Virus record (IMG/VR): IMGVR_UViG_3300020404_000180
Span: 1-64,000 of that record
Length of the DNA stretch: 64,000 bases
Strand: one strand, 5' to 3'
Source of the DNA: a virus
Made by a program: the position numbers and the translations under genes. Shown here one piece after another: positions 17,401 through 62,800 of this stretch; positions within the stretch are counted from its first letter, which is position 1, and each line of letters opens with the position of its first letter. The notes beneath the pieces were generated by a model, which made no database searches, was not told the DNA's origin, and saw only the letters and a program-made list of their open reading frames with translations.

Positions 17401-17407
17401 TCTTCAT
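11495..17407 (-). CDS. Giant subtilisin-like (S8) serine protease with propeptide-like N-terminus, three cupredoxin-like inserts, about 7 Ig-like repeats and FN3-like C-terminus
   Basis: Catalytic D (YVIDTG, 16583-85), H (NGHGTHCA, 16403-05), oxyanion N (SAGN), S (GGTSFAAPLVAG, 15749-51); repeats of ITxQP...TYQWQxS...YRC. Confidence 0.9.
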   Translation of the reverse strand: MKRVVVRVSDNYSLDSAAAAILKLYGYLTFVESFRTFSIITFDCPERYTSVIIDQLRALNVVKKATWDANAFQLNPVYESQLTAETSGTAVLNETGETNTVGNTRQLTGAGSGTIYVKVQNINGNNLYLFSQTQNGVYSQFANQTGFLQGATYTFDQSDSSNATHGMRFSETPDGPWTTGGTTYSNGVVVTGTAGQAGASVAITISSSTPSILYYYCINHSGMGRYDNLHANRFGTINVHDYWHLDRITKQDRQYLNRQFSYNQDGNAADLYVIDTGVRGASRPTGNNAALHSELYDPSYVSDLNGTTEQQNYRVYQLGHYAGAHGSNNEDDNGHGTHCAILAAGRGAGIARRAKIYALKAFDSNLSASYTNILAAYQAVIDHNDSGNGNYKGNTRPAVINASFGPTIPNANYPYIELNDAGSDSGTDEEILDDIEGTIASTYNIIIVRSAGNGFKNSSDAFAGPIQGKCISGTRTAGYADNTNGGINTVDANQNKVSVGATEYNDRWADFSNYGAGTTTTAPGARILVPAYDWTANTPTTSASNYTTIGGTSFAAPLVAGVALAWCGANGYTLTTNNLTGTFKTFCRTPNDVGDIRKGGSTFYPTNSIEDRKLIDNPYETAAGSNFLIVKFNPADASHFLGNVGKKCQLRTTGSTAGAGGSTPTTFNITTTAPSSGYYTLNGTDRNGAVSGNDVGVTVYVGDTINFNLSNVSGIHPFYIRVSSNGANVSTPSASGQGSTGNSTVSWTPNTAGTYYYQCGVHSGMIGSITVQTAPGGSGGVVVGGIDVSGLSQSGWLTIQAESAINNTITVQNTSNATAGTTGGGSNNYLALIDPESKTHESIDGVVSTSTTLRSQTDTQEAQGTGQYTNVVYYPVDSGVDFDYNGTGGTLTKKRGAFFPYVDTNVTWTTSTGALNGSPYADGANITVELGLAGTTFANEPTFEQYTLSGDAIGASGLTFNTATGQLSGTVTSDYLDTTFNFTVTENVTQNARAYSFTTTGTGVLITITGNPNSTSVEAGANINAVFGPVSATSSDGSTLLYQWEFSSNGGVGWSNVTNGGFYSGATTNTLSVDDEYSLNNYQYRCQVTSATAIAPGTTTAATLTVTRVITVDTQPTNQQPVAPAAAAFTCAGSTKDAATLSYQWQISQNGDGVTFADIGGATSTTYTTGSTSYDNDYGDFYRCKLNVAGAPEVITSSARNLVQRTISITSQPSNVTGAVGGTVSFGVAANTSDNDAGDITFQWQVSLTAGASWSNVSEGTGGTSATYTTPTLTQAYDEYQYRCLLAANGATTIPSNAATLQVETVTVIVSTQPTGSTVTEGNTATFTTLGGVTMAPVGGNAASSSFDVEQFDTPTGGGGGAEGQSQHEPSVTYQWEKSDNAHDVTTPTTYTVTVAAKTASHPYYNQGSGKGYYIIGGVYDTVTQAPNLQFVKGATYVFNQDDASVTTHAIYFSAVETAYAGSDRYETGVTYTLDGVDVSYTAYDTGFATATQRRVSITVDASAPSTLYYACQAHQYMGNAITVGDVVWSTLGGATSASYTTAATTYADDHLDQYRCIIAATGAASNATTNAATLNVQRTLSITSQPANATANEGGTAAFSVSATGSSGTPTYQWKRSDDGGNNYVDVTGANSSSYTTPTLTFAADNADRYVCEVSLVGASSSVTSTFALLSILRVITIGTQPQNQGVIEGNQATFTIVASITSDVITYQWQKSVDSGANWSNINGANSASYTTPATVYPTTPSEQFRCVLTNPNATTVTSNAATLTVNESEFVSAPASITPVIDSDTSKTFSRQPVINTAAYVVEYSGSVHFSSFWRIRRVSDNVTVFNTADTFTNGDTGNLTSLTVPSGTLDFDTAYSVQVKFRDNAGLESAFSSAVNFTTPLVDQPDIQTITPAFNPTINVNAIAMKTGYTHSSSDWQFSPTNTFATIVHQSLGNSTNLLSYTLPGAVNLSANTTYYVRIRFNINPT
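12838..13243 (-). repeat. Dispersed repeat copy A (cupredoxin-like domain); partner at 61165-61580
   Basis: Shared blocks such as tctagtgtgtaggttacg, gcaccttttacaaa and tgcttggcaagcatagta(a/g)agcgtg. Confidence 0.85.
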
Positions 17408-24781: not shown

Positions 24782-27700
24782 TTAGACTATGCTCCAGTAT
24801 CCACCACTGTTTATGGTTACAGTTACACCGTTATTTATAGTAACAGGACCTGAACTTAAACAGTTGTCCCCACTATTTACAGAAATGTTTTCTGCGACGG
24901 AGTTTCTATTTCGTTTGAATACTCCATAACGGTCAATCCACTGCTTGTCACCATCAGCACGAAGAACAACATTACGCTGTCCGCTAGATAAACCTTCAGA
25001 AGATGTATTAATATTTATTCCGTTAGATCCTCTAACCTCTAATCTGTAAGATGACTGTGTTTGGTCACTACCAGAATACAATGTCCAGTAACCACCATCA
25101 CCATTGATAGAACCCTGTCCAGTATCATTGTTAGAACGGAAGTAGAAGTCGTCACCTGTTCTTAAGTAAGTATGAGAGTTGTTAGAGAAGTAGAATCTTT
25201 CCTGACCACCAGCATCACTAATCCATTGGTTAACACTACCACCTAAGTATGGAAGATTAAGTGCACTGTAACCATCAAGTAAGTCTGCGTTAAGGTTAGG
25301 ACATACAGTTGTAGAACTAACAGCGATTGGTGCAGTACCTTGTGCAACTGTTGACCTTATAGTATTTGTTGAACGAATGTCGCCTTTAACATCAAGTTTG
25401 TAAGATGGTGTACCGCTACCAAAGTTACCAACACCCACGTTACCACTTCTTGAGATTCTCATTGACTCGAAGAAGTCTCCAGAACCATCGGTTCCTTGTG
25501 TGAAGAATGTCAAACCTAGGTAATCACTATCAGTGTTCTCTGCAATACCTGATATCATCGCACGTCTGCGACCTCCAGTTCTCCATACGATAGAACCTAG
25601 AGTATGACCCACAGTAAATGCTGTGTCAACTTGAATCAACATTGATTCTCCACCAGTTACTGTCTGTGATGCTGAACCATCACCGTCACCAGTGTTACCA
25701 CCCTCATCTACGTGGAAACGTGCTAGAGGATTAGTCTCGCCAATTCCTAAGCGACCACCACGGAAAGTAATATTATTATATGATAAGTATGTGCCATTCC
25801 AACCAAAGGCGTTGCTATCGTTACCAAAACGGATGTAACCTTGATTGCTGTCTTGTCTACCCTTAATTGATAACTGGTTAGTGGTTGCCTTACCTATGTT
25901 AATACCATTACCATCAGCTAACTGTAAGATAGATGTACCAGTGTTAGAGAATATACCTTGGTCGGCATATAAATCGTTGACTGTTAAATGACCTGATGAA
26001 TCTCTACGAGCAAGAGTGTTTGATGATGCAGATGTTGACTGTGTATAACCATCAACATAGTGAGCGTCTAACTGTGATGATGCTCCATCGTTTCCTGCAT
26101 GCCAGATTGTGTTACCATTTGCTGTTAAATCTCCAGCGTTAAATCTTAATGTACCATTACCGTTAGAACCATTACCACCAGAGACGATCATTTGAACGTC
26201 ATAGTCTGGTGCTTGACCAGATGATCTAAAGTCTAATGTTGGTGTAGTAGATACTGCTGCCTTACCAATCTGTAATTTAGCACCAGATGCATTGTCACGT
26301 AATCCAATGATAGTAGAGGAACCACTTGATATTGGGTTAGATGATGTTACTGTCCATTTTGTGCCAGGATTAGGTCCGAAGACTCTAATGTTTGCGTTAG
26401 TGTTATTACCAACAAATGATATTGTTCCAGTAACAAGTGAATATATTTCACCAGTTGTATGTGTTTTTTCTTGAACACCATTAGAACTATCAACCACGAT
26501 AGAACCAATGTTATTTGTTGCACCATCATTTGAGTAGATAGTGTAGGTTCCACCATTATTGATGTTACCACCAACACCACTATTACAATGGAAGTCTGGA
26601 ATGTATAGTGTAAATTTATTACCTGTGTCATTAACAAAGAAGTTCTCAAAGACCATCTTGTCTTGACCAAGAACTTCTGGTAAGAACATATCACCAATCT
26701 TGTGATCAAGTCCTGCACGTGTGTCACCAATGTTATAACCAGAACCATACCATAGTCCTTGCTTACCGTCTAACTTGTCAGCGTCTAATCCACTGCCAAC
26801 ACCGTCATTTCCTTCTGACCAAATCTTGAACCAGTTAGAGTAGACTGCATTGATTCCATTATTACCTCTGATGTATAGGTTGTTATTATCTGTAAATCCT
26901 AATTGAGTTGATGCAGTTCCAGTAGACTGTCTTCTGTATGTGAGAATACCATGTGTTGTACCACCATCATTAAGACCAGTTGCAGCGTTATTTCTAAGTG
27001 CTGCAGCAACACCATTTGCTGCCTGAGCAGGAGATGGGTTTGATGTGAGTGATGCAGTCTCGTTAAATATTCTGTTTGCAGTATCAGCAGTACCAGATAT
27101 AGAGATGTTGTATGTTATGTTTGCAAGTCTTGCAGGATCTAATGTACCGAAGATAATGTTGTTTGCAGTCTGATAGAATGAACCATCGTTACCATCTAAT
27201 TTGTCAGCGTTAAGTTCAGATCCTGCACCTTGGTCAATAGAAACCTGACCATTGTTATCAACAAGGAATCCACCTTGATCTTGGTTTGCAACCGCTTGGT
27301 TAGCAACGTCCTTTCTAAATCTGAATACACCGTAGTTACCATATACTGAGGAACTCGCAGTTAGAGAGTCACCTTTTCTTATGTCAACTTCAATGTTACC
27401 AAATGCTCTGTTAATAGTTCCCTTAGTAGCATTCAATACTGCACTGTTACCACCACCAAGTTCACTTGGTATTACAACTGAGAAGTCTCCAGTGTATCCT
27501 GTACCAGAGTCAGTAACCTGTGCACTAATAATAGCACCACTTGATACAACGTATGTTGCTCGTGCAACATCATCACTTGTAACAGAGACGTTACCGCCTT
27601 CCATTGGTAAGTTCTGATAAGTTCCATCTGTATATCCAGAACCACCATTTGCAATAGTGATTGTGTCAACGTAAGAACTATCAGTAATAGAACCACCAAT

Positions 27701-30700
27701 TAGTATGGCGTCAGATGTTGTAGGTCTAATTGATTGTAATGCATACTCCCATGAAGAATCACCACGTAAGAAACTAAATGAGTTTGCAGTTCCTTTACTT
27801 GCTAATCTTTCTGGGTCAATAGTACCAGCAACAATATTTGATGCATCAATGTTAGTTGATGTTAACTGTGTCCAGTTTGCAGCGTTAGATGCTGATGTAT
27901 TGATTGTTCTAGTAAGGTCAACAATTCTCTTCCTTGCAAAGTTACCAGACGTGGTAGCAGCAGTAGGAGAAGTAATAGAATATTGATTTGAGTTTAATAA
28001 TGTTATAGCGTAGAAACCATCAGGTGCAGTTCCTGTTGTGAAATCAAAGAACTGTAGAGAACCGTTAGATAAACCATGTGAACTCTCAGTGAATGTAATC
28101 GTTGTGCTTCCACTCTGTGAGTAAGTTCCAGTTGCTAAGTTCGCTAGTGCTTGGTCAACAATAAAGTCAGATGCTTCAAACTTGATATTGTTAGCAATGT
28201 TGATTGCAACTCTACCTTCTATCTGTGCAGCAATAACTGCATTATTAGATGAACCACTAGGTGATGTTAATACCTGTACTGTTGGTTGTGAGTAGTAACC
28301 TTTACCAAGGTTTGTAATCTCAACTCTAGTTACAACACCACTGGTTACTTTTGCTGTAGCAGCAGCTTGAACTCCATTACTTGTGTCGTCAGGTGCAGAT
28401 ATTGTAAGGTTAAAGTCTCCAGAATATCCAGAACCACCACTACTGATAACGTAGTTAAATACAGCACCATCATTGTATGATTGTACAGTACCACGTGCAG
28501 TTGTAGAACTACCAACAACGATATCACCATTACTAAATTGGAATGCACTGTTAGGTGCAAATGCTAAGAACTGACTCTCTAAGTCATTCTCTAAGATGTA
28601 AGAGATAGCAACACCAGCGGTTACAAATTGATGAGTACCAGAACCTTGACTTGATAATGTTATCGCAGCACCAGAGTTAGCATTTGATGTTGTTGCAGCA
28701 AGTTTGATTGTGTTATCATCAATCTTGATAACGTAGTAAACGTTATTTGTTGCAAGACCACCGATTGAGGATGAACCCTCTGTGTATGTCAACTGGTCTC
28801 CAGTTGATGTACCGTGTCCAGTAATTGTAATTGTGTCCGCACCAGTATTGACTGATGAAGATGCTACAGAGAATGTAGTAGCAGATGTTTGTATTGCAAT
28901 ATCACCAGCGTTTGCGTCTTCAATCGCAAGTCTTTCTGCCTGTGATGCAACAGATGTAATATTAAATGGACGTAAGGCAGGAATCTGGTCAATGTTAATC
29001 TTACCGTTTGATGTCAACTGAACCAGTGCAGATGGAACTGCGTTTGTTGAGAATGGTTGGTTGAGGTAAGGTCCTAAGTTGTTAGAGATATAATCTTTAA
29101 CAGATGCCTGTGTAGGTAGTAAGGAGTCAGATGCGAATGTACCACCAAGTGTATCAGCAGCAGAGAATCCTGTAATTGTAATGTCACCACCAACAATCTT
29201 GATAGATGTAAGTTCTGAGATTGCAACTGTACCAACGAAACTAATAGCACCAGTTCTGTTGAAGATAGTAACAAAATTACCAACCTTGAAGTCACCAAAT
29301 TCGTTCGTACCAGATGTATAAACCTGACCGAATTGTTCTTCTGCTGCTTCAAATGCACTTCCTAATCCAACACCACCGTTCTGAGGTAATGCAGCATATG
29401 TGTTACCAGAACCAGCGTATTCCCAAGTGTGTGATGATGAGTTACATACAGATGGTCTATGGAATTTAATACCTAAACTTACTAGATTTGATAGTGCTAA
29501 ACTTCCAGCAACAAATCCAGAATCGTTAGATGACTGATACCTATTACCATTACTGATATTGGTAAAGTCCATTGACCTGTTGGTCTTAATCTTAGCAACA
29601 ATCTGTGTGCCAGGTGAACCAGAAACCAATTCTGTTTCTAGAATTATATGCTCTACAGCAAGGTCAGATGACCTATGACCATCAATCTTGATGATGTAAT
29701 CTTCAATAGGTATGTTTGTTAATGATGTACCAGATACTTGGATAACTTGTCTACCTGTTGGTGTACCATTTCCATCGACGTCTTCTGTAATAGAATCAAT
29801 AACACCGACGTCAAATGTGTATGCTTCTGCTCTAAATCCTGTAGCACGTAGTGAGAAAGTACCAAAGTTAGATGCAGAGTTTGTAACAGATGCATAACCA
29901 CCAGACTGTACTAAGATACCATCTTGACAGAAGATAGCAAACACAGAAACCAACTGTGTGTAACCATCATTACTGATGTTGTACGCAGTACCACCAAAAC
30001 ATATAATGGTGAATGCGTTTGCAACCATTGACTTACCTTGTGGGTCAAACTGTGCAACAGTAGCACCCTGTGAGTTTTGTTTTAAACCAGCTCTAGGTAC
30101 GTTTGGTGTAGCAACCTTAGCACCATCAATCTCACAACCAGAACCACCAAGGAATGATATAAGTGAAGAGTTCTGAATGTATGGAGATGCTTCAATGATT
30201 GGAAGGTCTAAGTGTACATTTCCTAATGGGAACGAATATGATGATTGATCCTGTTCAGTAATTACTGGGTCAGGATTTGTAATTGCACCACTGTATGCTG
30301 TAGCACTTGATAATACGTTATCTAATATACCCCAGTTTGTAGTCAATGCAGATACAACATTAGCACACTCAGGTGCAGATGAATCTACAGTAATAGAACC
30401 ATTGGATGTAATTGGTATTTGTGAGAACTGACCAGTCTCTAAATTATTTCTTATTGCGTCTATTGATAGTTCTTTTGCTGCAGCGAACATTGCACGACTA
30501 TACTGTACCTCGTTGTCTAGGTATTGTATTGCACCACTAGAGATATAGAGGTTTGCTGCCTCAACAATTGCTGAGTTTCCACCGTAACGTAAGTCGAACT
30601 GGAACGCACGACAAATCTTCATTACGTCATCAATACACTGTTGGTCGCCAGGTGCAGCAGTTCGTGTAACAGATGATACACTACCAGCAGTAGAACCGCT

Positions 30701-33700
30701 TCCTAACGCTGTTGTAACGGTGTTGAAGAAGGTTGTAATTGATGATACGACATTTGCACAAGAAGGTGCTGTTGCAACCGTTCTAGTAGCATGTGACATA
30801 TTGTCGTTAGCAATAGCAGTATCAAGGATTGTGAAGAATCCATCTACTAAATTTTGCTCTACAGTTGTTCCTTTATTGTTGTTGTCAGTTACCTGTGTAA
30901 ATCCGTGATTACCCTCTATGGTAATTGTCTCACTAGCAGCTGCTTGTTTAGCAATTGCTTTTGCTATTGCAAATACTGCACGTGATTCTGTTTCTTCTCC
31001 ATCAAGGTGTGTAGAGTTTGTATACAACTGTGCTGCATCATATACTTGCTCATTTCCACCATGTGCTAAGTTGTAAACTACAGTACGTACAAAATCACTA
31101 ACGTCATCTATACAGTTTTGATTTCCACCAGGCACATTGTGTGATGGGTTATCTATGTTGTAACGTTGAACTGACTCAAATGCAATCAAGTCTAAGTTCT
31201 TAAGAATTAGAGTTGCAGCATAACCAGATACAGTTTGTGCAGGAGTATCTAATGTAAGAGTATGATAGTATTGTAATTTTGTTGAGTTACCATAACGATG
31301 TATTGGTAGATTTCTTGATGCTAAGATACATGCATCTTTTGCATTGTTGAATACTTCTACATAACGGTCTCTTGTTAGTGAGAAACCAGGATCAATATAG
31401 AATTTTGCTTGGTCATAGACTCTATCGTTTCCACCCCACTTTAAGTTGTGTGCAAGTGCTTTCTGTATGAAGTCTCTAACATCATCGTAGCATGCTGTAC
31501 TACCTGTAGGAATAGTGTAACCACTATTAGCAGCAAGCATTTTATTGACTGCATAATCTGCAATCATATCTGCGTTACCAAATAGTAACTCTGCAGCATC
31601 AGCATACTTGTTATCTACTGGTATGCTGTTTGGAGTTCTAAATGGTTTCTGTAAATCTGTAAATGTACCAACAGTTCCTGTCTGACCATTAGCAGTATTG
31701 TTTGCTAGGTCTACAACAAATTTTCTGTCGTCAATAATGTCCTTAAGACCATGAGTACCATTGACCACTGCGTTACCAGAGTTAGCAATAGTAATTTCTG
31801 TGATTGCTTTCTTAACTGAGTTAGCACCAGCACTTACAAAATAATGTGTTGAAGTGTCAGATGATACACCAACGTTAACTTCAAATGTATTAGTTTGTTT
31901 GTTTGATATCTTTAACCACTTGTCAAATGCAGGGTCACTACCTCTAGGATATGGATGTTTAGTTGCACGAGAGTCGGTGTCACATTCAAATACAAACGCA
32001 CCAGCATCAAACTTAACTAAGTCTCCGTTTTGGAAACCATGGTTTGCTATGGTTACTTCAAATACACCAGTGCCAGGTGTGTATGTTGCACCAGTAGGTG
32101 TATGCTGACTAAAGTTTGGATATAAGTTATGTCCTCTCTGTACAATAATTGTACAATCATCGCCTGATACAGACCATGATGTCATCTTCTTCGCAATAGT
32201 ATCTGCTGCTACTCCGAAATTTGTTCCACCAATAGTAAGTGCATTAGTACGAGTAGCGGATGATTCATAATAATATTTGACATATGCTACTGCCTCCTGT
32301 GCAATAAATTCTTGGTTTATCTTGATTGCCTCAGCACCATCTAAGAATCTATCACTCTGATTAATAGCAGTAAATCCATAAGGAGAGTTCCTCAAGGATG
32401 CTAGTACATAGTTAGAAGATGATACAACTGTTTGGTCACCAGTTGGGTTGATAGAAGCACCAACCTGTGATATGTTTCCACGAATAACAAATTGTAGTGA
32501 GAAACCATCAGCACGTTCAATACGATGTGTGATGTATTTTCTACCATTGAGGTCTTCAAGGTTGTCTAAGATACTAACGCCAGAACCAGAACCAGTTGTT
32601 ACATCGCTAGCAGTATCAATATTTGCTTGCTTTAGAACAAAGGTTACAGTCAAGTTAGAACTGTTGTACCTAGCAACACCTAAACCTAAATCAGTGTTTG
32701 ATGGTAATGTAGGAGTTCCAGAACCTTGAGTGAATCCATCAATATTATATGTCTTACTAAATCTCTCAAAACCAGCAGGGAAGTTGAATGTAATACCCGC
32801 TTCAGTTAGAGATGCCCAGTTAGCAAATAATGTTCCTGTTTTTGTATTGTCAACACTTGATACAGTAACTGTAATCTCTCCACCAGAGATTGTAAAGTTA
32901 GTATTTGTTGATGTACCGAAATCTATTGCAGAGTTTTGGAAACCATATACTTGAACTTCTTGTCCAACCTCATAGTCATGGAAATCAGAACTTGTACTAG
33001 AACTTGCAAGTGTAAAGATAGGACCGTTATAAGTTGCTACAGTGTTCAGTGATGTGTCAATCGTTGTGATTGATAAGACTCTTTCCTGTATGTCAAATCT
33101 TTGGAAACCCTTACCAGCACTTGTTATATCAATTGTAATAGGATCATCAGCACCAGATGCATTCTTCTGTGTTGCGTTAGCAGCAGATGCTGCTAATCTG
33201 ATATAATCATCGTTTTCTTTATATACAAAATATGCAGTGCCATCAACAAGACCACCTATCGCACCCATTTTTCCAGCACGATATATGATGCCTTCTCCAG
33301 TTGATAGTAAATGATTATCAATAAAGATATTATTTGCTTCTGGCATTATATTACCAGACTCAAATACATGGAAACTATCGTCAGGAGATACATTTGTGAT
33401 GTCTTTTCTACCCTGAGTTACGCTAAGGTTTATAGCGTTAGCATGAGTGTCATATAATTCAATAGTATCTGCATCAATAACTCTGACATAGTAGACAGTG
33501 GTGTCAATTAAACCTGGCAGAGGATTGAGGTTTTCGTCTTTACTATAGTATACTGCTGCACCTGTTTTATATCTGTGTGCAGTAAGTGTAATTCTGTCTA
33601 GAGCAACATCAATAAAGTTTGTACTACCTTTAAATGTGACGAATTCTCTCTCAGCATCAACAGTGTGCTGATAGATTTGGTTAGATATAACTTCTAATTC

Positions 33701-35161
33701 TGGTCTTAATGACTCAGCATCTACAACGTCAAATCTATCTGATACACCAGCGTTATTGAGATCAGTTATGATATTTGCAGCAACTGAATCATAGAATATT
33801 TTCTCAGCGTCTTGGAATACGTCGTTAACACCTGACGTAATTAGTATCGTTACATTACCAGTTGAGTATGGAGATGCGACAGGACCTGTAAAGTTAACTG
33901 TCTGAATTGTACCAAGTGTACCTGATGATCCACCTTGTACAAAGTAGCCTGTCTGTAAAGATGTGTTATTACCTGTGTGATTGTTAAAGGTAACCTTAAA
34001 TATGTTTTGGCCACGAAACTTTTCGCCAGCAACTGCAGGGATCTGGCGTACTTCTGGTTCATAGTAAAGTCTTTGTTTGTCATCAAACACAAACGCAAAC
34101 TTCCATGTATGAATAACTGTACTCTGTGGGTCAGAGGAATTTTGTAGTGCATCTCTGAATACAACACCATTGATGTATGTTTCATTAGACGCCTTGATCA
34201 TATGCCTATCGGCATTCTGTGGTCTTAGAATAACACGACGAAGGTTGTCACCAATCAGTGAACAGTTTCTAGGAAGTGAGATTGGGTTATCTTCAAAGTA
34301 TTCACCACCAGATACAATAATAGAAACGTATTCATCAGATGGGTCTGGAACTGCTTTCTGCAATCCGTAAGCAATCTGTGCTGCTTTCTTGATAGTTTTT
34401 ACAGGTCTTGCTGCAGAACGACCATCGTTTGTATCTAAACCAATGGTTGATGATACGTATACACGACCACCAGTGTCATTAGTAGCAACTTTATATACAA
34501 AGTCAGTGGTAGCAATCCTTCTTGACTGGTCAGTCAGAGGAGGAGTATCAGCACTTGGGAAGAATGTAGTTCCAAATGTAGGACTTGTGACGTCTGTATC
34601 TTCAAAGTTAACTAAGTTTGGTGCTCTTAGATTCAATGAAGGGTTAACAATTGTACTGATATCAAGGTTTGTAACCTGTGCAGTATCAGAAATGATAGAA
34701 CGAGTCGTTCTAATTTGTCCCTCAACATCGAGTTCAAACTCAGGATTATTAGTATTGATACCAACACGAACGTTTTCCTGTGCGTTTTTGTTTATGAATA
34801 ATGCGTCTTTCTCTAATGCACCTGTACCAACAGATACCTCAATAACCTCATCACCTTGAATACTTAATGAACGAACTCTCTTATATGCTAGAGTCGCACC
34901 CGCTGTAATTATACTATTTGCTGAACCTACAAAACTTAAATTATCGTCATCTACCTTAGTTACTGTAAACTCTCCATCTACTTCACCACCACTAGTAAAG
35001 TCAATGTATAATTTATCTGATCCTATTATGCCATGTGCAACCGAAACAATATTACCCACCCCACCAGACGTTCTGCTGTACGTGGCGTTTACCCAGTTTC
35101 CTGTCGCTTTAGACCCAGATGCTTCTATCCTCTGCTGGTCTACATTAAACTTTAAACTCAT
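24782..35161 (-). CDS. Giant (3459 aa) tail-fibre/virion structural protein: interrupted pectin-lyase-like beta-helix, phycobiliprotein-like helical domains, LxADxLDG fibre repeats
   Basis: VYVSS..G.D.NDG..PVKTIKKA, GDNLRRV; LNADKLDG, LDADKLDG, LDAHYVDG, LNADLLDG; C-terminal SSGPVTINNGVTVTINSGGYWSIV. Confidence 0.85.
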   Translation of the reverse strand: MSLKFNVDQQRIEASGSKATGNWVNATYSRTSGGVGNIVSVAHGIIGSDKLYIDFTSGGEVDGEFTVTKVDDDNLSFVGSANSIITAGATLAYKRVRSLSIQGDEVIEVSVGTGALEKDALFINKNAQENVRVGINTNNPEFELDVEGQIRTTRSIISDTAQVTNLDISTIVNPSLNLRAPNLVNFEDTDVTSPTFGTTFFPSADTPPLTDQSRRIATTDFVYKVATNDTGGRVYVSSTIGLDTNDGRSAARPVKTIKKAAQIAYGLQKAVPDPSDEYVSIIVSGGEYFEDNPISLPRNCSLIGDNLRRVILRPQNADRHMIKASNETYINGVVFRDALQNSSDPQSTVIHTWKFAFVFDDKQRLYYEPEVRQIPAVAGEKFRGQNIFKVTFNNHTGNNTSLQTGYFVQGGSSGTLGTIQTVNFTGPVASPYSTGNVTILITSGVNDVFQDAEKIFYDSVAANIITDLNNAGVSDRFDVVDAESLRPELEVISNQIYQHTVDAEREFVTFKGSTNFIDVALDRITLTAHRYKTGAAVYYSKDENLNPLPGLIDTTVYYVRVIDADTIELYDTHANAINLSVTQGRKDITNVSPDDSFHVFESGNIMPEANNIFIDNHLLSTGEGIIYRAGKMGAIGGLVDGTAYFVYKENDDYIRLAASAANATQKNASGADDPITIDITSAGKGFQRFDIQERVLSITTIDTSLNTVATYNGPIFTLASSSTSSDFHDYEVGQEVQVYGFQNSAIDFGTSTNTNFTISGGEITVTVSSVDNTKTGTLFANWASLTEAGITFNFPAGFERFSKTYNIDGFTQGSGTPTLPSNTDLGLGVARYNSSNLTVTFVLKQANIDTASDVTTGSGSGVSILDNLEDLNGRKYITHRIERADGFSLQFVIRGNISQVGASINPTGDQTVVSSSNYVLASLRNSPYGFTAINQSDRFLDGAEAIKINQEFIAQEAVAYVKYYYESSATRTNALTIGGTNFGVAADTIAKKMTSWSVSGDDCTIIVQRGHNLYPNFSQHTPTGATYTPGTGVFEVTIANHGFQNGDLVKFDAGAFVFECDTDSRATKHPYPRGSDPAFDKWLKISNKQTNTFEVNVGVSSDTSTHYFVSAGANSVKKAITEITIANSGNAVVNGTHGLKDIIDDRKFVVDLANNTANGQTGTVGTFTDLQKPFRTPNSIPVDNKYADAAELLFGNADMIADYAVNKMLAANSGYTIPTGSTACYDDVRDFIQKALAHNLKWGGNDRVYDQAKFYIDPGFSLTRDRYVEVFNNAKDACILASRNLPIHRYGNSTKLQYYHTLTLDTPAQTVSGYAATLILKNLDLIAFESVQRYNIDNPSHNVPGGNQNCIDDVSDFVRTVVYNLAHGGNEQVYDAAQLYTNSTHLDGEETESRAVFAIAKAIAKQAAASETITIEGNHGFTQVTDNNNKGTTVEQNLVDGFFTILDTAIANDNMSHATRTVATAPSCANVVSSITTFFNTVTTALGSGSTAGSVSSVTRTAAPGDQQCIDDVMKICRAFQFDLRYGGNSAIVEAANLYISSGAIQYLDNEVQYSRAMFAAAKELSIDAIRNNLETGQFSQIPITSNGSITVDSSAPECANVVSALTTNWGILDNVLSSATAYSGAITNPDPVITEQDQSSYSFPLGNVHLDLPIIEASPYIQNSSLISFLGGSGCEIDGAKVATPNVPRAGLKQNSQGATVAQFDPQGKSMVANAFTIICFGGTAYNISNDGYTQLVSVFAIFCQDGILVQSGGYASVTNSASNFGTFSLRATGFRAEAYTFDVGVIDSITEDVDGNGTPTGRQVIQVSGTSLTNIPIEDYIIKIDGHRSSDLAVEHIILETELVSGSPGTQIVAKIKTNRSMDFTNISNGNRYQSSNDSGFVAGSLALSNLVSLGIKFHRPSVCNSSSHTWEYAGSGNTYAALPQNGGVGLGSAFEAAEEQFGQVYTSGTNEFGDFKVGNFVTIFNRTGAISFVGTVAISELTSIKIVGGDITITGFSAADTLGGTFASDSLLPTQASVKDYISNNLGPYLNQPFSTNAVPSALVQLTSNGKINIDQIPALRPFNITSVASQAERLAIEDANAGDIAIQTSATTFSVASSSVNTGADTITITGHGTSTGDQLTYTEGSSSIGGLATNNVYYVIKIDDNTIKLAATTSNANSGAAITLSSQGSGTHQFVTAGVAISYILENDLESQFLAFAPNSAFQFSNGDIVVGSSTTARGTVQSYNDGAVFNYVISSGGSGYSGDFNLTISAPDDTSNGVQAAATAKVTSGVVTRVEITNLGKGYYSQPTVQVLTSPSGSSNNAVIAAQIEGRVAINIANNIKFEASDFIVDQALANLATGTYSQSGSTTITFTESSHGLSNGSLQFFDFTTGTAPDGFYAITLLNSNQYSITSPTAATTSGNFARKRIVDLTRTINTSASNAANWTQLTSTNIDASNIVAGTIDPERLASKGTANSFSFLRGDSSWEYALQSIRPTTSDAILIGGSITDSSYVDTITIANGGSGYTDGTYQNLPMEGGNVSVTSDDVARATYVVSSGAIISAQVTDSGTGYTGDFSVVIPSELGGGNSAVLNATKGTINRAFGNIEVDIRKGDSLTASSSVYGNYGVFRFRKDVANQAVANQDQGGFLVDNNGQVSIDQGAGSELNADKLDGNDGSFYQTANNIIFGTLDPARLANITYNISISGTADTANRIFNETASLTSNPSPAQAANGVAAALRNNAATGLNDGGTTHGILTYRRQSTGTASTQLGFTDNNNLYIRGNNGINAVYSNWFKIWSEGNDGVGSGLDADKLDGKQGLWYGSGYNIGDTRAGLDHKIGDMFLPEVLGQDKMVFENFFVNDTGNKFTLYIPDFHCNSGVGGNINNGGTYTIYSNDGATNNIGSIVVDSSNGVQEKTHTTGEIYSLVTGTISFVGNNTNANIRVFGPNPGTKWTVTSSNPISSGSSTIIGLRDNASGAKLQIGKAAVSTTPTLDFRSSGQAPDYDVQMIVSGGNGSNGNGTLRFNAGDLTANGNTIWHAGNDGASSQLDAHYVDGYTQSTSASSNTLARRDSSGHLTVNDLYADQGIFSNTGTSILQLADGNGINIGKATTNQLSIKGRQDSNQGYIRFGNDSNAFGWNGTYLSYNNITFRGGRLGIGETNPLARFHVDEGGNTGDGDGSASQTVTGGESMLIQVDTAFTVGHTLGSIVWRTGGRRRAMISGIAENTDSDYLGLTFFTQGTDGSGDFFESMRISRSGNVGVGNFGSGTPSYKLDVKGDIRSTNTIRSTVAQGTAPIAVSSTTVCPNLNADLLDGYSALNLPYLGGSVNQWISDAGGQERFYFSNNSHTYLRTGDDFYFRSNNDTGQGSINGDGGYWTLYSGSDQTQSSYRLEVRGSNGININTSSEGLSSGQRNVVLRADGDKQWIDRYGVFKRNRNSVAENISVNSGDNCLSSGPVTINNGVTVTINSGGYWSIV

Positions 35162-35731: not shown

Positions 35732-35739
35732 TATTTATA
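35732..35739 (-). promoter_or_regulatory. Perfect T4 late promoter TATAAATA overlapping the stop codon of the 2426-aa gene
   Basis: + strand tatttata, about 20 nt upstream of ATG 35710. Confidence 0.8.
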
Positions 35740-45453: not shown

Positions 45454-45657
45454 GTCTTTGGACACTAACCCCCTTACTATTTCTTTAAGTTCATCAAGTT
45501 CTGCTTTCACTTCTTCTAACTCTCTATCCTTCTTCTTTGCAGCAGCACGTGCTTTCTTATACGCCTCATACCCAGTAGAGTCCGTATTCACTATCGCATT
45601 AGACTTTGGGTCTCTACCTAGAGTAGTATGACCCTCTACAGGAATTAACTCCGTCAT
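45445..45657 (-). CDS. Small hypothetical protein with coiled-coil C-terminus
   Basis: PVEGH..LGRDPKSNAIVNTD..YEAY; ATGA overlap with the upstream gene. Confidence 0.8.
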   Translation of the reverse strand: MTELIPVEGHTTLGRDPKSNAIVNTDSTGYEAYKKARAAAKKKDRELEEVKAELDELKEIVRGLVSKDHK

Positions 45658-53868: not shown

Positions 53869-53876
53869 TATTTATA
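53869..53876 (-). promoter_or_regulatory. Perfect T4 late promoter TATAAATA overlapping the gp7 stop codon
   Basis: + strand tatttata, about 20 nt upstream of the gp8 ATG. Confidence 0.8.
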
Positions 53877-56800
53877 ATGATCTTAGACGAACTTCTGGTA
53901 GCAGAGAGCAGTTTCCGCTTGCTGTCCGCGAGAATGGAAATTCGACTGTGAACGATGTTGCTGTTGTAACAGTAACTTTGTAAGAACCATCAAATCCAGT
54001 TCCTGATGTGCAATCCAAATAGAATTCCTGACCAGTACTTAAATTATGATTAGAACTTGTAGTCACGGTGCATAAAGTTCCTGATGAACTATATGTACCA
54101 GTAATGACTGGGTGTGCAGCAGCAGTGGTACCTAAGTAACCTCTACCACCAGTAGCAACAGTTAGTGTTTCTGCTACTGTATCCTTAGAACCATACAAGA
54201 TTCTTTCGGCACTCCACACACTATTTACACTGTCATAAAATGGTATCAAAATTTCACCTTCATCAGGGAATCCATTTTTCTGTGATGAATCAAACCAAAC
54301 ATTCTTTAGATTTATTGTTGTGCCAGATTGTGATAGTGTAGACGTTAGGTATGTAGCAGATAAGTTTTTAGAATTAGATATAAGTCTATTTCTTTGTTTT
54401 CTTTCCACTGCAATTGGGTGTGTTGGAAGCACAGTTGGAGCACTTGTATAATTTGCACCACCTTGTAAGTTTACTACACCTGTAACTCTACCACTACCTA
54501 TTTCTATTGTTGTTTCTGCAAATGCTCCTTCTCCACCACCACCTTGGAATAGTAGGATAGGTGGTACCTCATAGTTAGAACCAGCATTGATGATGTCTAC
54601 CTGTGTTACTGCACCGTTGACTATAGTAGCAACAAACTCTGCAGTTGATGGTCTTAGACCTGTATACTCATAACTGTCAATAGTGGTAGAACTAGAAACC
54701 TTAGCGATTGAACGGTCAGAACCCTCAGAGTCAATCTGGAATCTATCTCCTATATCTAATGAGTTAAATGTGTTGCTGACTAGAACGTCCTCAGCAGAAC
54801 CTGTAAATATGAATATTTCACAAGTTGATCCTGCACGTGGTGGTTCACTAAACTCTATAATAGAACCTGTTAGAGTAAATGCTACACCTGGCTCTTGATA
54901 GATTCCGTTTAAGAATATGAGTAGGTTGTTTTGTGCTTCTACTTCTACGTTGTCACTTTCTAGTGAGAATGGTTCAGTATCCTCTTTCATAGTAAATGTC
55001 TTCTTCTGACTATCAAAGAATGGTGCAATCTCATCTAGTAATGTCAACTTACCAAGATAGAATCCGTAGAAGTCCATGCCTGGCAGAGGTGCTTCTGTAA
55101 ATGTTATTGTGCTTCCTGTATATGTGTATGCTTCTGTAGTACCCTTGACTTGGAATGTGCTATTCAAGAATATCAAGAAGTTATCACTAGCGGGTAGTAC
55201 TTGTGTACTACCGCCTACCTGTGCAGTAAATATTTTATCAGTGCCATCAAAGGTTACTGTGTCTACTTCTACTTGGAAGAATGGTTGTGTTGCAGATGTC
55301 CTTGTAATACCATTAAGATTACCAGAACCCCCTGCTGTAGTTCCAACTGCCTGTGTTACTATCGCCCAGAGAGTTGTTATTGTCGATGCTGTGTCAATAC
55401 AACATGCTTCAGAGTATGATGTGCTTCCAGAGTCATTACTGATTGTATTGTCTTTGACCTGTGTACCTACAGTGTATGAGTTTGTAGTAACTGTAAGGTT
55501 ACGCATAACCTGACGACAAATATCTCTAGCAGCATTGAATACTTCTACAGATTGATCTTCTTCTCCTGTTAGGTGTGCTGTAGCAACATAGAAGTTAGCA
55601 GCATCATAAGTTGCATCGTTACCGCCAAACTCTATATTGTCAGCAACTGCATCTACGAGTAATTTAGTATCACGAATACACTTGACCTGATAAGAACTAG
55701 AGAATCCAGCATTGTTTGCCATCATTCTACCATATGCAGTTGTAGCAATAAATTCTTGGTTTGTTCTTAGTAGTGATGCACCATCTGCGTTCTTGCTGTA
55801 ACCATATACACCGTATGATACAACTGCTCTTGTGACAGCAGTAGAAGTGGCACTAACAAATGTATGAGTTGATGTATCAGATGATACACCGACGTTAACA
55901 GTGAATGTATCATTTGTTACTGCGTCAATTGTATGCCATGCACCCTCTGATGGGTCACCTACTCTAGGATATGTGTGCTGTGTTTGATTGTTGTCTAGAC
56001 CACATGTAAATGTAAGACTGTTTGTAGCAAAGTATATTCTGTCACCCTTAATCATGCCATGACCAGAAACAGTCACGACCATCTCACCTGTAGTTGGTGT
56101 GTAAGCAATATCTGTAGGTTGGAACTGGTATGTTGATAATCCTACCCATGTATGTGAGTCAGTGTTTGTAGCAGTTGTACCGTTCAATGCATTGACTGTA
56201 ATCGTAGTCGTACCAACCGCTTCCACAGGTATATCTTTCATCTTACCCTGTGTACCTATTGGGTCAGTAGCACGTGGATATGATGCAGTACCACCACCAT
56301 TGTAACCACAACTAAACTGTAATGATTCGTTTGCAATTCTAACTGTGGATACTGCAAACTTGACACTATTTGACACTGCAGATACAAATGTATGTGCATC
56401 AGTATTTGTAGAAGGAATACTGTCTAATACTTGTACAGTAAATGTATTTTCTGTGCAATCAAATACTTGTAACCATCTATCAGATGCGTAGTCTGTAGAA
56501 CGAGGATATGCTTCGTCACCACCACCATTGTAACCACAGTTAAATGTAATCGCACCATCTGCAAACTTAACTTGGTCACCATTGACAAGTCCATGACTAT
56601 TGATAGTTACCACCATCAAACCAGTTGTACCACTGTAGGTTGCACCGCCTGGCGTATGTGTTGTTGGTGCAGATAAACCATGACCAGATCCTATAGTCAA
56701 TACCATCTCACCAGATGCAGGAGCATAAGTTCCTGTTGATGGAAGGAAGTTCTTAACTAACTGTTCTCCAACACGAGGATCCGATATTCCTAATACATCG

Positions 56801-59800
56801 TTATCTGTATATCCATTACCAGCAGTATTAAGTGCAACTCCTGTTACCTTACCACCAGTGACTGTAATGTCAGCAGTAGCACCAACGCCTCCACCTAGAT
56901 TATTTTTCAGTGGCACGTTTGTGTATACACCATCGCTATATGTGTTGCCAGATGTAATTGCACCGAATGTTTTTATCTCATCTCCAATTTGATCTAACTG
57001 GAAACTAGATGTGTAACTTGCACGGTCATAATACATGCAAAGAATCTTAGTCTCAGCAAGAGGAGGTGTAAGGAATGTTATGGCGTCGTTTGCAAATGTA
57101 TATGTTGCAGGGTTTGTTACTAGACCATTTGTCATTACGAGTAGTTGCTTCTTATCAGCAGCATGACCAATCTTAGTTCCAATATCAATATTGTTTGTTC
57201 TCAACTTAAATGTATCGTTGATACCATCAATGAATAATCTTAGTGAGTGTCCTACACCAGTTCCTAATGATGATAGATTAATTGCACTACCACCTTCAGT
57301 AGTAGCAAGTTGTATTGTATTTGCATCTACAAATTTAACATAGTATGCAGAACCATTTGTTAGACCACCAACAGGTGTACCAGTTCTATTGTTAGGATAG
57401 TTACCAGTATTGACTGTAGGTAGAGTAGATGGATTGTCTATACCTTCTGTGATGATTCCAGACAATGTAGTAATTGCACTCTTAACGTCTGAACATCCAC
57501 CTGAGTCTACTGTAATACTCAAGTCAGTAACAGGAGCAATGTTTGTGTAAGTTCCTTCTGGTAGACTATTGGTAACTGCTAGGTTACATAAGTCTCTTGC
57601 TTTGTTAAATGCAAATATAGTCTCTGTCTCTTCACCAGCAATATGTGTAATGTATCCAACTGGGTTTGTCCTTGTGACAGTTGACAAACTGTCTGTACTA
57701 ATTGCAGTAGTAATGATATTGAACAAAGTATCCATTGCAGCGTCAACTGTGGCACATATCGCTGCATCAAATGTTACACCAGTATTTGTTACTTGAGTAA
57801 ATCCATGACTACCTTGGATATTGATAGCAGTATTAACTATGACATCAGCTGCTAACTCTTTTGCCTTATCAAATGCCCAGATTGCCTGTGTCTCTTCGCC
57901 ATCTAAGTGTACAGTATTGACATAGAGATTTGCAGCATCCCATACCTCACTGTTTGCACCGTATGTCAAGTTATATGCAATTGCCTCTATACAATCTACA
58001 ATATCATCTATACAGTTCTGAGGTCCGCCAGGCACACCAGCAAATCCACTTGGAATACCGACTGTTGCATCTTCTAACATTAGATGCACTGCCTCAGCAG
58101 CAATCAAGTTCTTATTATTCTTAAGTAAGTTACCAGCATCAATATATGCATTGCCTTGACTTATTACTCCACCAATGTATGAGTTAGTTGCTGCAACAGT
58201 AAAGTAGTTACCACCATACTTGAGGTCATTAGTCCATGCAGCAATTACTAATCTTGTGTCTCTAGCACATGTTGCATTGTTATAGTTGAGTGATGGATAC
58301 TGTGCATTCAAAGCACCAATAGTCTCTTCTACAATATGGTCGATGTTGTTGATAATCAAATCTCTAGCATCTTGGAATCTATCACCACCAGCGTTGTAGA
58401 TTACACGTTGGTTATTAAGGAATCCATGACCAGTAAGTGTAATTTGGTCACTACTTGTGTTGACGATGCTGCTAGAAGATGCATCGAAGTTAATTGTTCT
58501 GTCACTGATGTCATCAATCTTATAAACGATACAAGATAAGATTTTCTGTATGTCTAGTAGTTGTCTACCAAAAATCGAGACCTCAGTTGGTACAAGTGCA
58601 CTGTAGTCGGGTTTGGCAAGTGCAAAATTGTTAATAGTAGCAAGCTTACCAGTATTCTTAGCAGACGGTTTAGGTGTAACGTAGGTTGTTCCATTGAAGG
58701 TGCTTCCAATACTATTTGTTGTCGGTACCCACCAGTCAGTAGAATTACCAGAGTTCAAGTCTAGATTTGCTTTAGACCTGTAATCCTTTTTAACTGTCTG
58801 TGTAATGACCTGTGTTCCAACAACCTTGAATCCAGCAGGATGTGCTGCAAACTTAAGTGGATTCTTCCAGTTGTTGATATTAACTGATGATGATATGTCA
58901 TATGAGAACTCTTGGAACCTATCGCTATCATATACACGCTGTTCATTAAGATCCAAGAATCCAGTTGTCCTTTCCCAACCAGATGCACTGATACTAATAG
59001 GTGATACGTCAAATACTGCATCTGCACGACTAAATGCATGTATCTGACCAAATGCTGCAGTCTCTTCTCCAAATACAGGTTCGCCAACCTTAAACTCGCC
59101 TTCTACTATCTCTACACTAACAACACGACCAGATGCGTCCCAATTCTTCACAAAACCGTATGCAGTGAATGAACTTGTTGATGCACCTTGATAAATCCTC
59201 TCTCCAACCGAGAAAGTTGCTGGTTTCATAAATGCATTGATGGTATCACCTAAATCTGTTGTTTCTAGTAAGAAATAAGTTTGACCTGTTGATATATCGC
59301 CTGTTGGTGCACTTGTAAACGTAATAGTGGTTTCTGTGTTTGCATTTGCAAGAGATGTCGCTAATCTAATCTGATTATCTGCTAATCCGTTTGCAGTGGT
59401 TGCTGCAACCGCATAATAGGTTGTATTTGGTAATAATGGTTCTGGGAACTGTCCTGATTGCTGAACTAGAGTTACTTTTGTGCCAGAAGGTATTTTTGCA
59501 TTATAAGGGAAGTTGATAGTGCTACTTGACTGTAATCCAACCCAAGTATGTGTAACTTTAGCAGATACAGTTGGTGCAGACGTAAATCCTCTACCAGCGT
59601 TCTCTACAAGCACTGATTGGATGACTTCGTTCTCAATAATTGGTTTTAATGAGAATAATGACCCTTGACCACCTGTAAGAACGATTGTTGGGTTAGCAAC
59701 GAAGTTTTGACCACCATTTACAACATCTAGGTAGTCAATGACCTGAGTTCTGATTAATTGTAGATTATAGGTTGTGTTTAGTGATGGTTTTAGTGTTCTA

Positions 59801-62800
59801 TCGTGAGAATAGTTGTAAGTGATGTTATCACCACTGATTTTAAGTATCTTACCTAAGTCAGATGACTTAAGAAGTATAGATGCACCAGATCCTGTCTTTT
59901 GCTCGATGTTAACAACTGGAGGTGACTGATATTGCTGACCACCTGTCTCTATGGTAACTGCGGTAACACTTTGGTTCTGAATAGTCGCATTTAAGACTGC
60001 ATTGATACCATTACCACCACTAACCGATACAGTAGGTGCAGATAAGAAACCAGAACCACCATTTGTCACTGTGACTGTATCAATTGCTGCATCAATGACT
60101 GTAGCGATGCTTGCAGGGTCATCAAAGGACAATGTATCGACTTGTATAGTAAAATCTTCTGTACTATCACCGCCAGGCAACTTAGTACCATCAAATGTCA
60201 AGATTGATGATGTATCGTATGCAGATCCACCAGCAGTTACGGTTACTGTACTGATTCTACCATTACCGTCAGTGACAATAGTAAATTCAGCACCAGATGC
60301 ACCATTTGGGTTTACTGATGTTTGAGTAACGCCTGTAGTTGTGGTATCTGCAGTAAATGTACCATTACCAGCGGGTTGAGTCTTAAGAGACGCAGTTGCG
60401 ACTGACCCATAGTAAGGATCATCAAATATAATGTCAGGAGCACTCCTGTAATTAGAACCAGCTTGAGTAATTGTAACACTTGCAAGTTTTCCACCACCAC
60501 TGACCGCTGAAGAGACAGTTGCTTGTGTACCACTGATTGCTTGTACAGAACCTTGTGAGTCAGAACTGTAAACAGTATTAGTCTCAGCAGTTCCTGTGCT
60601 AAACATGATGTATCCTTTGTTACCAGCACCTACTCTCTCATTTTTAAGTGGTTTGATTCTCAATACAGAGTTAACTGGGTTCCATGATATTACTTGACCC
60701 CTAGCAGTTGTATTTGCCTGTGTCTGTTGTGATATGACTATCTCATTAGGTATGAATGACCCGAATACATTTTGTAGTGTTAAATCTACAAAGTCAGGAA
60801 GTGTAACTACTGCAGTAGGTAATGAAGCAGCATTGTATCCTGCACCATCGTTTGTGATAGAGACATTGGATAGAGAACCAGATATTGTAGCAGTCGCTGT
60901 TGCACCAGAACCAGAACGTGTAGAACCACTGAGTTTAGGTAGTGATGAGTAGTTTCTGCCAGGATCACCAATTGTGATTGTCTTGATTCCACCTGTAGCG
61001 TATATGCTGTTGGTATCATATGATACACCTGTACTATAACCTGTCTCAGGTTCTAGAGCAGTAATGTAGTCGAATGTAGTATCTGTCTTTGCTGAGACTA
61101 TGTTAGTTCCTATTACTGGGTCGTTGATTGTTGTGAAATACCTTGATGATAATAATGTGCCAGAACTTACAGATATTCTATTACCCATATAACCGTGTGC
61201 TTGGCAAGCATAGTAGAGCGTGCTAGGAGCGTCTTCTGCAACTGTGATACTAACACTACGTGTGGTTGCTGTTGCAAACCCTGTAGCATATGATGCATAG
61301 TCAGGCATGACTACACCATCTAGTGTGTAGGTTACGTTTGTCTCGTATCTCTCTACTCCACCGTACGCAGATTCGCTTTGAGAGAAGTAAATTGCGTGAG
61401 TAGTATTACTTGAGTCATTTTGCTCAAACTTATATGTCGCACCTTTTACAAATTTTAGTGCGGGTGCTTGTGTGACTTCGTTATATTCACCACCAACTAA
61501 GTAATAACCATTACCACTGCCTTGACCGAAGTATGCGTGTGCGGAAGTCTTCGCTGCTACAGTAGTAGTGTAAGTAACTACGTTTGCACCTTCTATCAAA
61601 TCAAAGTAGTAGAATATGCCTGGCAAACCAGTTATCTTAACAGTAATAGAATTCTGTTCGTTAGTTACCGTGTCTAATACTTCAGCAGTAATATTCTTGT
61701 AAGTGAATATGTCTGTGTTGAGCGGATCAAATGTAAATGCAAGTTTCTTACCATTGTTAGATGCGTCACTAGTGTCAAAGTTGTAAGAGTGTCCGTCAAT
61801 GAGTTGTAACTTTGGTTCCTTGTTGTATACAGTAGCGGAACCTACGTTTGCTGCTGCAGGAGTAGCAAAGTTACTCTTGATTGTAAATCTCCTTAATGAC
61901 TCAGTTCTAACAACCTGATAACCTGTATTATTATAAGACGTAGGTGAGACGCCTGAGACTAATACTATATCGCCTATACCTAGTTGATGTGCTAATGTAG
62001 TATGGAAAACTGCTTCTCGCTGTGTTTCTGTCAGTGTAATGGTAAAACCAGAACCAGCAGGACTGGTTGCATTACCTAAGTTGATGTTATCTGCAGATAT
62101 TGTATCTCCTACGTTATATCCAGTTCCGCTACTTGTGATTGTAACAGATGATACACTGTTACCTGTAACCACGATAGTTGCTCTAGCACCTAGACCAGAA
62201 CCATTAGTTGTAATTGGCACATTGCTGTAGGTTCCGTTTTCGTAGTTAGAACCACCTGTAATACTTGACCATCCGTCTTGATGTAGGTTACCGTCTGTGC
62301 GGAGTCTTACGTATGTCCATACAAGGTTGCCATCAGATACAGAACCAGATGTATGTGTGGGTGCATTAGCAACATCACTATCTGATGTTCCGCTTGATGC
62401 TGCCTTGTACACTCTATTGTCTACGTAAACAAGATCCTCTTGATTGTATGCTGTACTATTTGTCCACGCACCGATTAGTTTGATGCTCTGTAAATCGTAA
62501 TACTTGAAGTAATACTTGTTATTGTATATCTTAGTATTGATTGTTCGTGTGTTACTATTGTCCGCCACGGATACGGTAACTTGGTCACCAGGCAAGAGAT
62601 AGTGATTAGTTGATGTAGCAACTGTAGTAGTGTAGATGTCATTGAAACTTGATACTGCGTTTGTTATACCTGTAGCAAGCACGCCTTCTACAGTAGAGAC
62701 TACTCCGCTTACTCCGTCGCCATTAGTTCCTGTGTTATCGAAGAGAAGTCTATCATTTACCTTATACTCTTTACCACCACCTTCTACAAGATACTGGTCA

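Follow-up and report, generated by a model that had tools for sequence, protein, structure and literature searches.

Residues 937-1623 of a giant fibre protein encoded by a T4-like cyanophage very probably form three nested domains homologous to phycobiliproteins, the antenna subunits of cyanobacteria, red algae and cryptophytes. This conclusion covers the identity and the architecture of the domains; the presence of a pigment is not included in it. The protein, of 3459 residues, is encoded in a 64,000-nucleotide stretch of DNA (positions 1 to 64,000 of IMG/VR virus record IMGVR_UViG_3300020404_000180, hereafter the window), which is part of an 88-kb viral record with a completeness of 49% according to CheckV. 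The three domains, A, B and C, resemble the β-subunit type of phycobiliprotein: helices A/B, E, F, G and H form a globin-like core, and the N-terminal X-Y hairpin is absent.

The repeated unit of the fibre protein

A sequence-only reading of this DNA had proposed phycobiliprotein-like domains in the fibre, and every string that it quoted, together with every cysteine codon, is present in the open reading frame (ORF) where it had been placed. The first string, DRFLDGAEAIKINQEFIAQEAV (residues 937-958, nt 32288-32353), begins at nt 32353 as proposed; it ends at 32288 and not at about 32260, while the helix modelled around it extends to 32264. Further along the protein are KYADAAELLFGNADMIADYAV (residues 1185-1205), ACYDD (1223-1227, Cys codon 31490-31492) and LKWGGN (1240-1245); then LILKNLDLIAFESV (1318-1331), NVPGGNQNCIDD (1342-1353) and LAHGGN (1365-1370); then a helix beginning SCANVV (1467-1486), the motifs QCIDD (1508-1512) and LRYGGN (1524-1529), and a helix beginning ECANVV (1598-1613). 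The unit thus spelled out begins with a long helix and a loop that ends in P-x-G-N, followed by a helix with C-x-D-D at its start, a G-G-N motif, two further helices and a separate helix of the 'CANVV' type.

An iterated hidden Markov model (HMM) of this unit gave 340 domain matches in 84 ORFs from the window and 78 related IMG/VR loci; copies of the window (L079-L082) were excluded from all counts. Because the unit recurs in 340 matches and itself matches phycobiliproteins significantly, the pattern of motifs goes beyond chance. Three alignments were used for comparison. A2 comprises 79 non-redundant units, thinned from 235 by shared 4-mers, two of which (from L052 and L048) are misaligned H-type stretches. 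A3 comprises 33 contiguous full domains, thinned from 67. A7 comprises 25 phycobiliproteins from five cyanobacterial genomes, 4 of 29 loci being left out where the wrong frame had been picked. These genomes were reached via the psbA product; the P-HM2 bilin reductase as query reached none. A contig labelled 'MAG: Bradyrhizobium ivorense' encodes a psbA product 90% identical to the phage/cyanobacterial one and is probably a binning contaminant.

Searches with Pfam revealed that family PF00502 (Phycobilisome) matches 36 of the 79 units at E<=1 (best 5.5e-7), the next family matching at most 3 of 79. The A2 profile found 141 PDB sequences at E<=10, with a best E of 1.2e-5, and the best 60 of the 141 are all phycobiliproteins plus one 'bacterial fluorescent protein beta'; in the best alignment profile positions 2-58 fall on chain residues 36/37 to about 100. 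With A3 the best E was 4.6e-6, and the strongest sequence matches to both profiles were β chains. Direct comparison of A3 with A7 by hhalign gave a probability of 94.8% and an E of 5.2e-8 over 102 columns (query 2-106 on template 36-149). In this alignment the VPGGN of domain C (PGGN at nt 31121-31132) falls on the PGGN of cellular β subunits, a loop that there carries γ-N-methyl-Asn72, and the Cys and Asp that follow fall on Cys82 and Asp85, in agreement with the correspondence that had been read from the sequence.

The homology had also been expected to escape ordinary searches, and this is true here. With residues 930-1640 as query, phmmer found no PDB sequence at E<=10, and self-BLAST of residues 901-1700 returned the self match only, since the repeats are too diverged. 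An HMM built locally from the 25 phycobiliproteins scored domain C at 6.8 bits, domain B at 5.6-6.2 bits and domain A, with its insert spliced out, at 10.3 bits, against 3.0 bits for the domain A core alone. The trend is the one proposed, but the scores are weak and not significant by themselves. An A3 search for proteins of near domain length found 22, none with a recorded Pfam family and no phycobiliprotein among them, which is not evidence that none exists; the 22 lie mostly on contigs below 2.1 kb, with a few on contigs of 7.5-214 kb. We attribute the failure of routine annotation to the recursive domain-in-domain architecture described below.

Predicted structure of the domains

Two structures were predicted with AlphaFold2 without templates. 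Model 1 covers residues 1180-1660 (46-row alignment, pLDDT 80.5, pTM 0.72) and model 2 residues 925-1655 (17 rows, pLDDT 75, pTM 0.61). All Foldseek rows listed for model 1 against PDB were phycobiliproteins (E 0.016-0.17, target TM 0.49-0.74, about 150 columns). VIA-align on the top Foldseek chains superimposed 135 residues at 2.1 A with Z 16.9, model residues 129..272 (protein residues 1308-1451) lying on β chain residues 33..177, and all 50 entries listed were phycobiliproteins or the same bacterial fluorescent protein. Model 2 repeated the match of domain C (Z 16.5, 135 residues, rmsd 2.1-2.2 A across the models); domain C alone is listed for it, with A and B absent. Helical models can reach Z of up to about 13-14 against unrelated chains in VIA-align, and we consider the match of domain C credible because it covers the whole core, exceeds this chance level and agrees with the sequence evidence. 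The predicted fold thus bears out the phycobiliprotein-like character of the unit, as do the sequence profiles and the profile-profile comparison.

In both models helices A, B, E, F, G and H of domain C build a globin-like core. The H-type helix 1433-1452 belongs to this core and is aligned to the end of the chain, the alignment reaching the last residues of the phycobiliprotein chains. The X-Y hairpin is absent: sequence and profile alignments begin at chain residue 34-37 and the structural ones at 33, and structural alignments that begin at chain residue 8 gain 2-3 aligned residues only. As modelled, domain C, helix 1433-1452 included, has all of the phycobiliprotein core but no X-Y hairpin.

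Nesting of the three domains

The unit was split into three profiles, AB (helices A/B), EFG and H, and these were mapped on all ORFs. The fibre gave the string AB, AB-EFG, AB-EFG-H, H, EFG-H, with three of each element in an order that brackets can produce and tandem repeats cannot. The A3 profile matched the fibre in five pieces, 2-31 (residues 937-966), 1-125 (1183-1306), 3-161 (1311-1463), 127-161 (1465-1503) and 38-154 (1505-1623), which make up three complementary full lengths; a sixth piece, at 0.1 bits, is noise. Among 80 ORFs there were 24 distinct strings, of which 20 (69 ORFs) parse as brackets without violation, 12 of them fully balanced, and one is a plain tandem. Many of the 80 ORFs are orthologs and hence not independent. 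Relatives include (AB-EFG)x5 Hx5 and (AB-EFG)x6 Hx6. In a shuffle test on the fibre's own string, 10 of 2000 shuffled strings parsed as well.

A homologue that is 52% identical (L042) lacks exactly residues ~1307-1462 in a clean 156-residue indel, and in it helix G of domain B runs straight into the 'CANVV'-type helix; its insert-free domain B spans ORF residues 1002-1165. This indel, the complementary profile coordinates and the bracket grammar strongly indicate, at the level of sequence, that domain C sits in the G-H loop of domain B, as had been proposed. The grammar and the coordinates, together with a confidently predicted helix at 937-966 (helix 13-42 of model 2, block pLDDT 70-89), similarly indicate that B and the adjoining β-strand modules sit in the B-E loop of domain A, which also agrees with the earlier reading.

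In the models the first piece of domain B corresponds to helices 6-103 and the second piece of domain A to helices 327-440 of model 1, and the helix that closes domain B has a pLDDT of about 90 in model 1. The β-strand modules appear as DSSP strands 51-246 of model 2; they matched Pfam below the cut-off only (aRib, 15.2 bits; End_beta_barrel, the endosialidase β barrel, 14.9 bits), and about 87 residues of them (1014-1100) are missing from L042. Two P-HM1-like relatives (L014 and L016) have about 220 extra residues in the β-module insert. In other IMG/VR relatives (L019-L041) the inner domain holds an insert of about 650 residues between the A/B and E helices, for example with AB at 346-368 and EFG at 1012-1080. 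An (A/V)-T-R-T motif recurs at domain junctions of the fibre, after the orphan A/B helix (residues 969-972), after helix H of C (1456-1460) and after helix H of B (1496-1499), and may be a common connector of domains. The coordinates of the parts are collected in the table.

Coordinates of the fibre gene, its domain parts and a second giant gene in the window
Feature	Coordinates	Strand	Remarks
Giant fibre ORF (P0001)	24782..35161	-	3459 aa; ortholog of P-HM2 PHM2_096 'tail fiber protein'
Domain A, first piece: helices A/B, residues 937-966	32264..32353	-	A3 profile 2-31; AB element; orphan in linear order
β-strand modules, residues ~975-1170	31652..32239	-	Part of the insert in the B-E loop of domain A
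Domain B, first piece: helices A/B, E, F, G, residues 1183-1306	31244..31615	-	A3 profile 1-125; Cys82-like Cys1224 (31490-31492), Asp1227
Domain C, whole and contiguous, residues 1308-1463	30773..31240	-	A3 profile 3-161; in G-H loop of B; PGGN 31121-31132; Cys1350 (31112-31114), Asp1353
Domain B, closing piece: helix H, residues 1465-1503	30653..30769	-	A3 profile 127-161; Cys1468 (30758-30760)
Domain A, second piece: helices E, F, G, H, residues 1505-1623	30293..30649	-	A3 profile 38-154; EFG and H elements; Cys1509 (30635-30637), Asp1512; second Cys1599 (30365-30367)
Second giant structural ORF	53872..63999	-	Open at the end of the window; just upstream of the gp8-like gene

Distribution in cyanophages and light-dependent adsorption

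A tblastn search with domain C matched 320 of 50,697 phage records, and all 320 are cyanophages (Synechococcus phage 253, Cyanophage 57, Prochlorococcus phage 10). The A3 profile gave 7 matches each in P-HM2 and P-HM1, 3 each in Syn9 and P-SSM4 and 12 in S-PM2, which Jia and co-workers are said to have found in 2010 to be a light-dependent phage. The whole genomes of P-SSM2 and of the podovirus P-SSP7 gave none even at E<=1. The domain was present in all 11 cyanomyoviruses of an evenly spaced sample from a gp20 search.

CpeT (PF06206) was found in P-HM2, P-SSM4, S-PM2, Syn9 and 7 of the 11 sampled genomes, and not in P-SSM2; P-HM2 encodes both a CpeT-family lyase and a bilin reductase. Altogether, among 16 genomes 11 carry the domain and CpeT, 4 the domain alone, 1 neither and 0 CpeT alone. 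Strict co-occurrence of the domain with CpeT is therefore rejected. Nor does the bilin reductase track the domain: P-HM2, P-SSM2 and P-SSM4 have it, S-PM2 and Syn9 do not. Sullivan et al. 2010 (PMC3037559) call what phage pcyA and pebS do 'a mystery' and the role of phage cpeT 'unresolved'.

Liu et al. (bioRxiv 10.1101/167650) report no adsorption of P-HM1 and P-HM2 in the dark, whereas P-SSM2 adsorbed in the dark less than in light, and P-SSP7 and P-GSP1 adsorbed in the dark. In the four of these phages that were scored, the domain goes with light-dependent adsorption (P-HM1 and P-HM2 versus P-SSM2 and P-SSP7).

Putative bilin attachment sites and alternative explanations

The three domains may still bind a covalent bilin at the Cys82-like site, and mostly also at a Cys153-like site, and the fibre would then be light-responsive; we advance this prediction tentatively. 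The bilin would be supplied in the infected cell by bilin enzymes and lyases of the host or the phage. A more specific prediction, which we regard as rather unlikely, is that the domains are chromophorylated by host lyases or phage CpeT, with a bilin made by host or phage PebS/PcyA/HO, and that the fibre is a photoreceptor allowing adsorption only in light.

It is about equally likely, at odds somewhat short of even, that the domains are homologous and nested as described and serve as pigment-free structural knobs, their Cys and Asp being kept for folding, helix capping, metal binding or disulfides. The conservation of the attachment residues speaks against such knobs. At the Cys82 position 77 of 79 units have Cys, both exceptions being misaligned rows, and at the Asp85 position 77 of 79 have Asp; the two residues are kept in 33 of 33 full domains. 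In the fibre the aligned pairs are Cys1224/Asp1227, Cys1350/Asp1353 and Cys1509/Asp1512. The cysteine is unneeded for the fold, yet it persists among units that share 20-45% identity. In 30 of 33 full domains helix H has a second Cys at its start, which domain C of the fibre and the two close orthologs of that domain lack; the second sites of the fibre are Cys1468 in domain B and Cys1599 in domain A. The terminal helices had been matched to the end of CpcB, and the 'CANVV'-type helix is indeed an H helix. The match of its Cys to that of 'GDCSAL' in phycocyanin β is weak: the two are co-linear in a stretch that scores 2.2 bits and is not significant alone. In phycobiliprotein structures the two attachment cysteines are far apart, so that an intradomain disulfide is unlikely. 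A further argument against pigment-free knobs is that, in the four phages scored, the domain goes with light-dependent adsorption.

Other observations count against a pigment and are in line with structural knobs. Where all 25 cyanobacterial phycobiliproteins have Arg84, 58 of 79 units, the three fibre domains among them, have Asp, 14 have Arg and 7 another residue. At the Asn72 position 33 of 79 units have Asn, and domains B and A read PTGS and PGDQ in place of PGGN. A deletion of 7 residues between PGGN and Cys in the hhalign alignment sets the Cys at the very start of helix E, where its N-x-C-I-D-D context could be a capping box. The X-Y hairpin is missing from the fibre domains, and domain C is without the second Cys. 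Four of the 15 domain-carrying genomes have no CpeT match, three of these having sub-threshold candidates. The correlation with adsorption comprises four phages of three lineages and is phylogenetically confounded. Coloured cyanophage particles are not known to have been reported, though no search aimed at them was made.

Several results likewise weigh against the homology and nesting of the domains. The whole fibre protein had a single Pfam match, PF00502 at 16.2 bits (E 0.01), under the cut-off of 22.2 bits; taken singly, domain C scored 15.5-16.7 bits and domain B 12.5 bits (E 0.15) with PF00502, and the domain A piece gave no match to this family. Foldseek returned nothing for model 1 against PDB at E<=0.001 (best 0.016), and both models were predicted from shallow alignments of 46 and 17 rows. 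Four of the 24 architectures break the bracket grammar, once each. The contacts by which 937-966 would close domain A (on 1505-1623) and 1465-1503 domain B (on 1183-1306) are inferred; a pLDDT of about 70-90 for these outer-domain helices is compatible with packing and proves nothing.

The fibre might instead contain ordinary tandem four-helix repeats, the 'CANVV'-type helices forming a separate bundle or linker with no insertion of one domain in another. A plain alignment of residues 1180-1597 does show three look-alike stretches in a row, and the nesting of the outer domains A and B is read from linear sequence rather than from a contact map. Tandem repeats are nevertheless very unlikely, as the H-type helix 1433-1452 of domain C lies within the phycobiliprotein core, AB, EFG and H occur in equal counts, and bracket order outnumbers plain tandem by 20 architectures to 1 among the 24. 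The third unit, moreover, is without its own A/B helix, and an orphan A/B helix is found 540 residues upstream; L042, finally, drops one AB-EFG-H set as a whole, joining G of B to the next H helix.

Resemblance of a generic helical bundle to phycobiliproteins by convergence or chance, suggested by the sub-threshold Pfam scores of single window sequences, by Foldseek E values above 0.001 and by the Z of up to about 13-14 that helical models can reach against unrelated chains, is the least probable explanation and hardly tenable in view of the profile-profile match (94.8%, E 5.2e-8), the PDB profile matches (E 1e-5 to 5e-6, with phycobiliproteins and one fluorescent protein filling the 60 best of 141 rows), the Z of 16.9 over 135 residues of the whole core at 2.1 A, the coincidence of the family-invariant Cys, Asp, PGGN, Gly and Tyr columns and the restriction to cyanophages among matching phage records.

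The locus and a second giant gene

The window belongs to a T4-like cyanomyovirus of the P-HM1/P-HM2 kind and has further genes for the gp20 portal, the gp18 sheath and the gp17 terminase, for gp15 and for a gp8-like protein. The fibre ORF matched PHROG 5342 (phrog_5342, tail fiber protein) at 2891.7 bits. DNA of positions 30300-32400 is 76-77% identical to Prochlorococcus phages P-HM2, P-HM1 and MED4-213, where the counterpart gene is labelled 'tail fiber protein' or 'YapH protein'. Neither psbA nor CpeT was found in the window's own record, which is 49% complete.

The unit HMM detected three further phycobiliprotein-like copies in the second giant ORF, especially at 55288-55800 and 57420-58395. 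One pair there is nested at another place, in the order AB-EF, whole domain, G-H, i.e. as an insertion between helices F and G. One contiguous domain (55288-55800) has C-I-R-D and so keeps the Arg84 equivalent. PF00502 matched it weakly (E 0.006 and 0.03). Three other giant ORFs on the minus strand, at 11495-17407, 35735-43015 and 45654-52334 (1970, 2426 and 2226 aa), gave no match to the unit HMM; the position of the 2426-aa one matches P-HM2 PHM2_094, annotated as gp7 baseplate wedge subunit.

Relation to known proteins and implications

With phycobiliprotein β subunits (CpcB, CpeB and cryptophyte β chains; PF00502) the fibre domains have in common the globin-like A/B-E-F-G-H core, the PGGN loop (in domain C), Cys82 and Asp85; the Cys at the start of helix H in domains A and B may in addition correspond to the β-type second Cys, with which it aligns weakly. 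Unlike β subunits, they have no N-terminal X-Y hairpin, the part that builds the α-β monomer, lack 7 residues after PGGN and mostly have Asp for Arg84. The missing hairpin argues against a canonical α-β monomer interface. β subunits are free antenna proteins of 160-185 aa, whereas the phage domains are built, nested up to six deep, into virion proteins that are thousands of residues long.

The core-membrane linker ApcE likewise carries a phycobiliprotein domain within a large multidomain protein, with its B-E loop interrupted as in domain A. ORFs of 898-1148 aa in four cyanobacterial genomes, which we take to be ApcE, match PF00502 in two pieces, 2-55 and 66/67/68-152/155 (e.g. G002:C88:9450-10067), and these ApcE-like ORFs are a cellular precedent for insertion in the B-E loop. 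Among the chains listed by VIA-align for model 2 are some of ApcE (7vea_aM, Z 13.1). In contrast to the fibre, ApcE belongs to the cellular antenna and attaches its bilin autocatalytically, and what interrupts its domain is a short loop some tens of residues long rather than whole domains.

The fibre ORF is a member of the giant fibre and baseplate proteins of T4-like cyanophages (PHROG 5342, 4527, 18802 and 701). Relatives that carry phycobiliprotein-like domains are annotated as 'tail fiber', 'YapH protein' or 'structural protein', and these annotations name neither the phycobiliprotein relationship nor the nesting. In the full-text literature available, with subscription journals outside its coverage, no description of phycobiliprotein-like domains in phage structural proteins was found.

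We propose that T4-like cyanophages acquired a β-type phycobiliprotein gene from a cyanobacterial host, and that the captured domain then multiplied by insertion of one domain into a loop of another. The ends of the core are presumably close together, which would let a whole copy fit in such a loop. In the virion the domains would form compact helical knobs on trimeric fibre or baseplate proteins.

Relatives of phycobiliproteins built into virus particles, with the attachment residues kept, are unexpected, and the recursive domain-in-domain architecture, up to six deep in relatives, is a striking case of protein evolution by insertion. The finding makes pigment on the virion and light sensing testable, and brings the open questions on the roles of phage pcyA, pebS and cpeT and on the lack of adsorption in the dark within reach of bench experiments. 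If the fibre were indeed a photoreceptor, this would explain the light-dependent adsorption of P-HM1, P-HM2 and S-PM2 and the presence of cpeT and bilin-synthesis genes in cyanophages, even in those of Prochlorococcus, which has no phycobilisomes.

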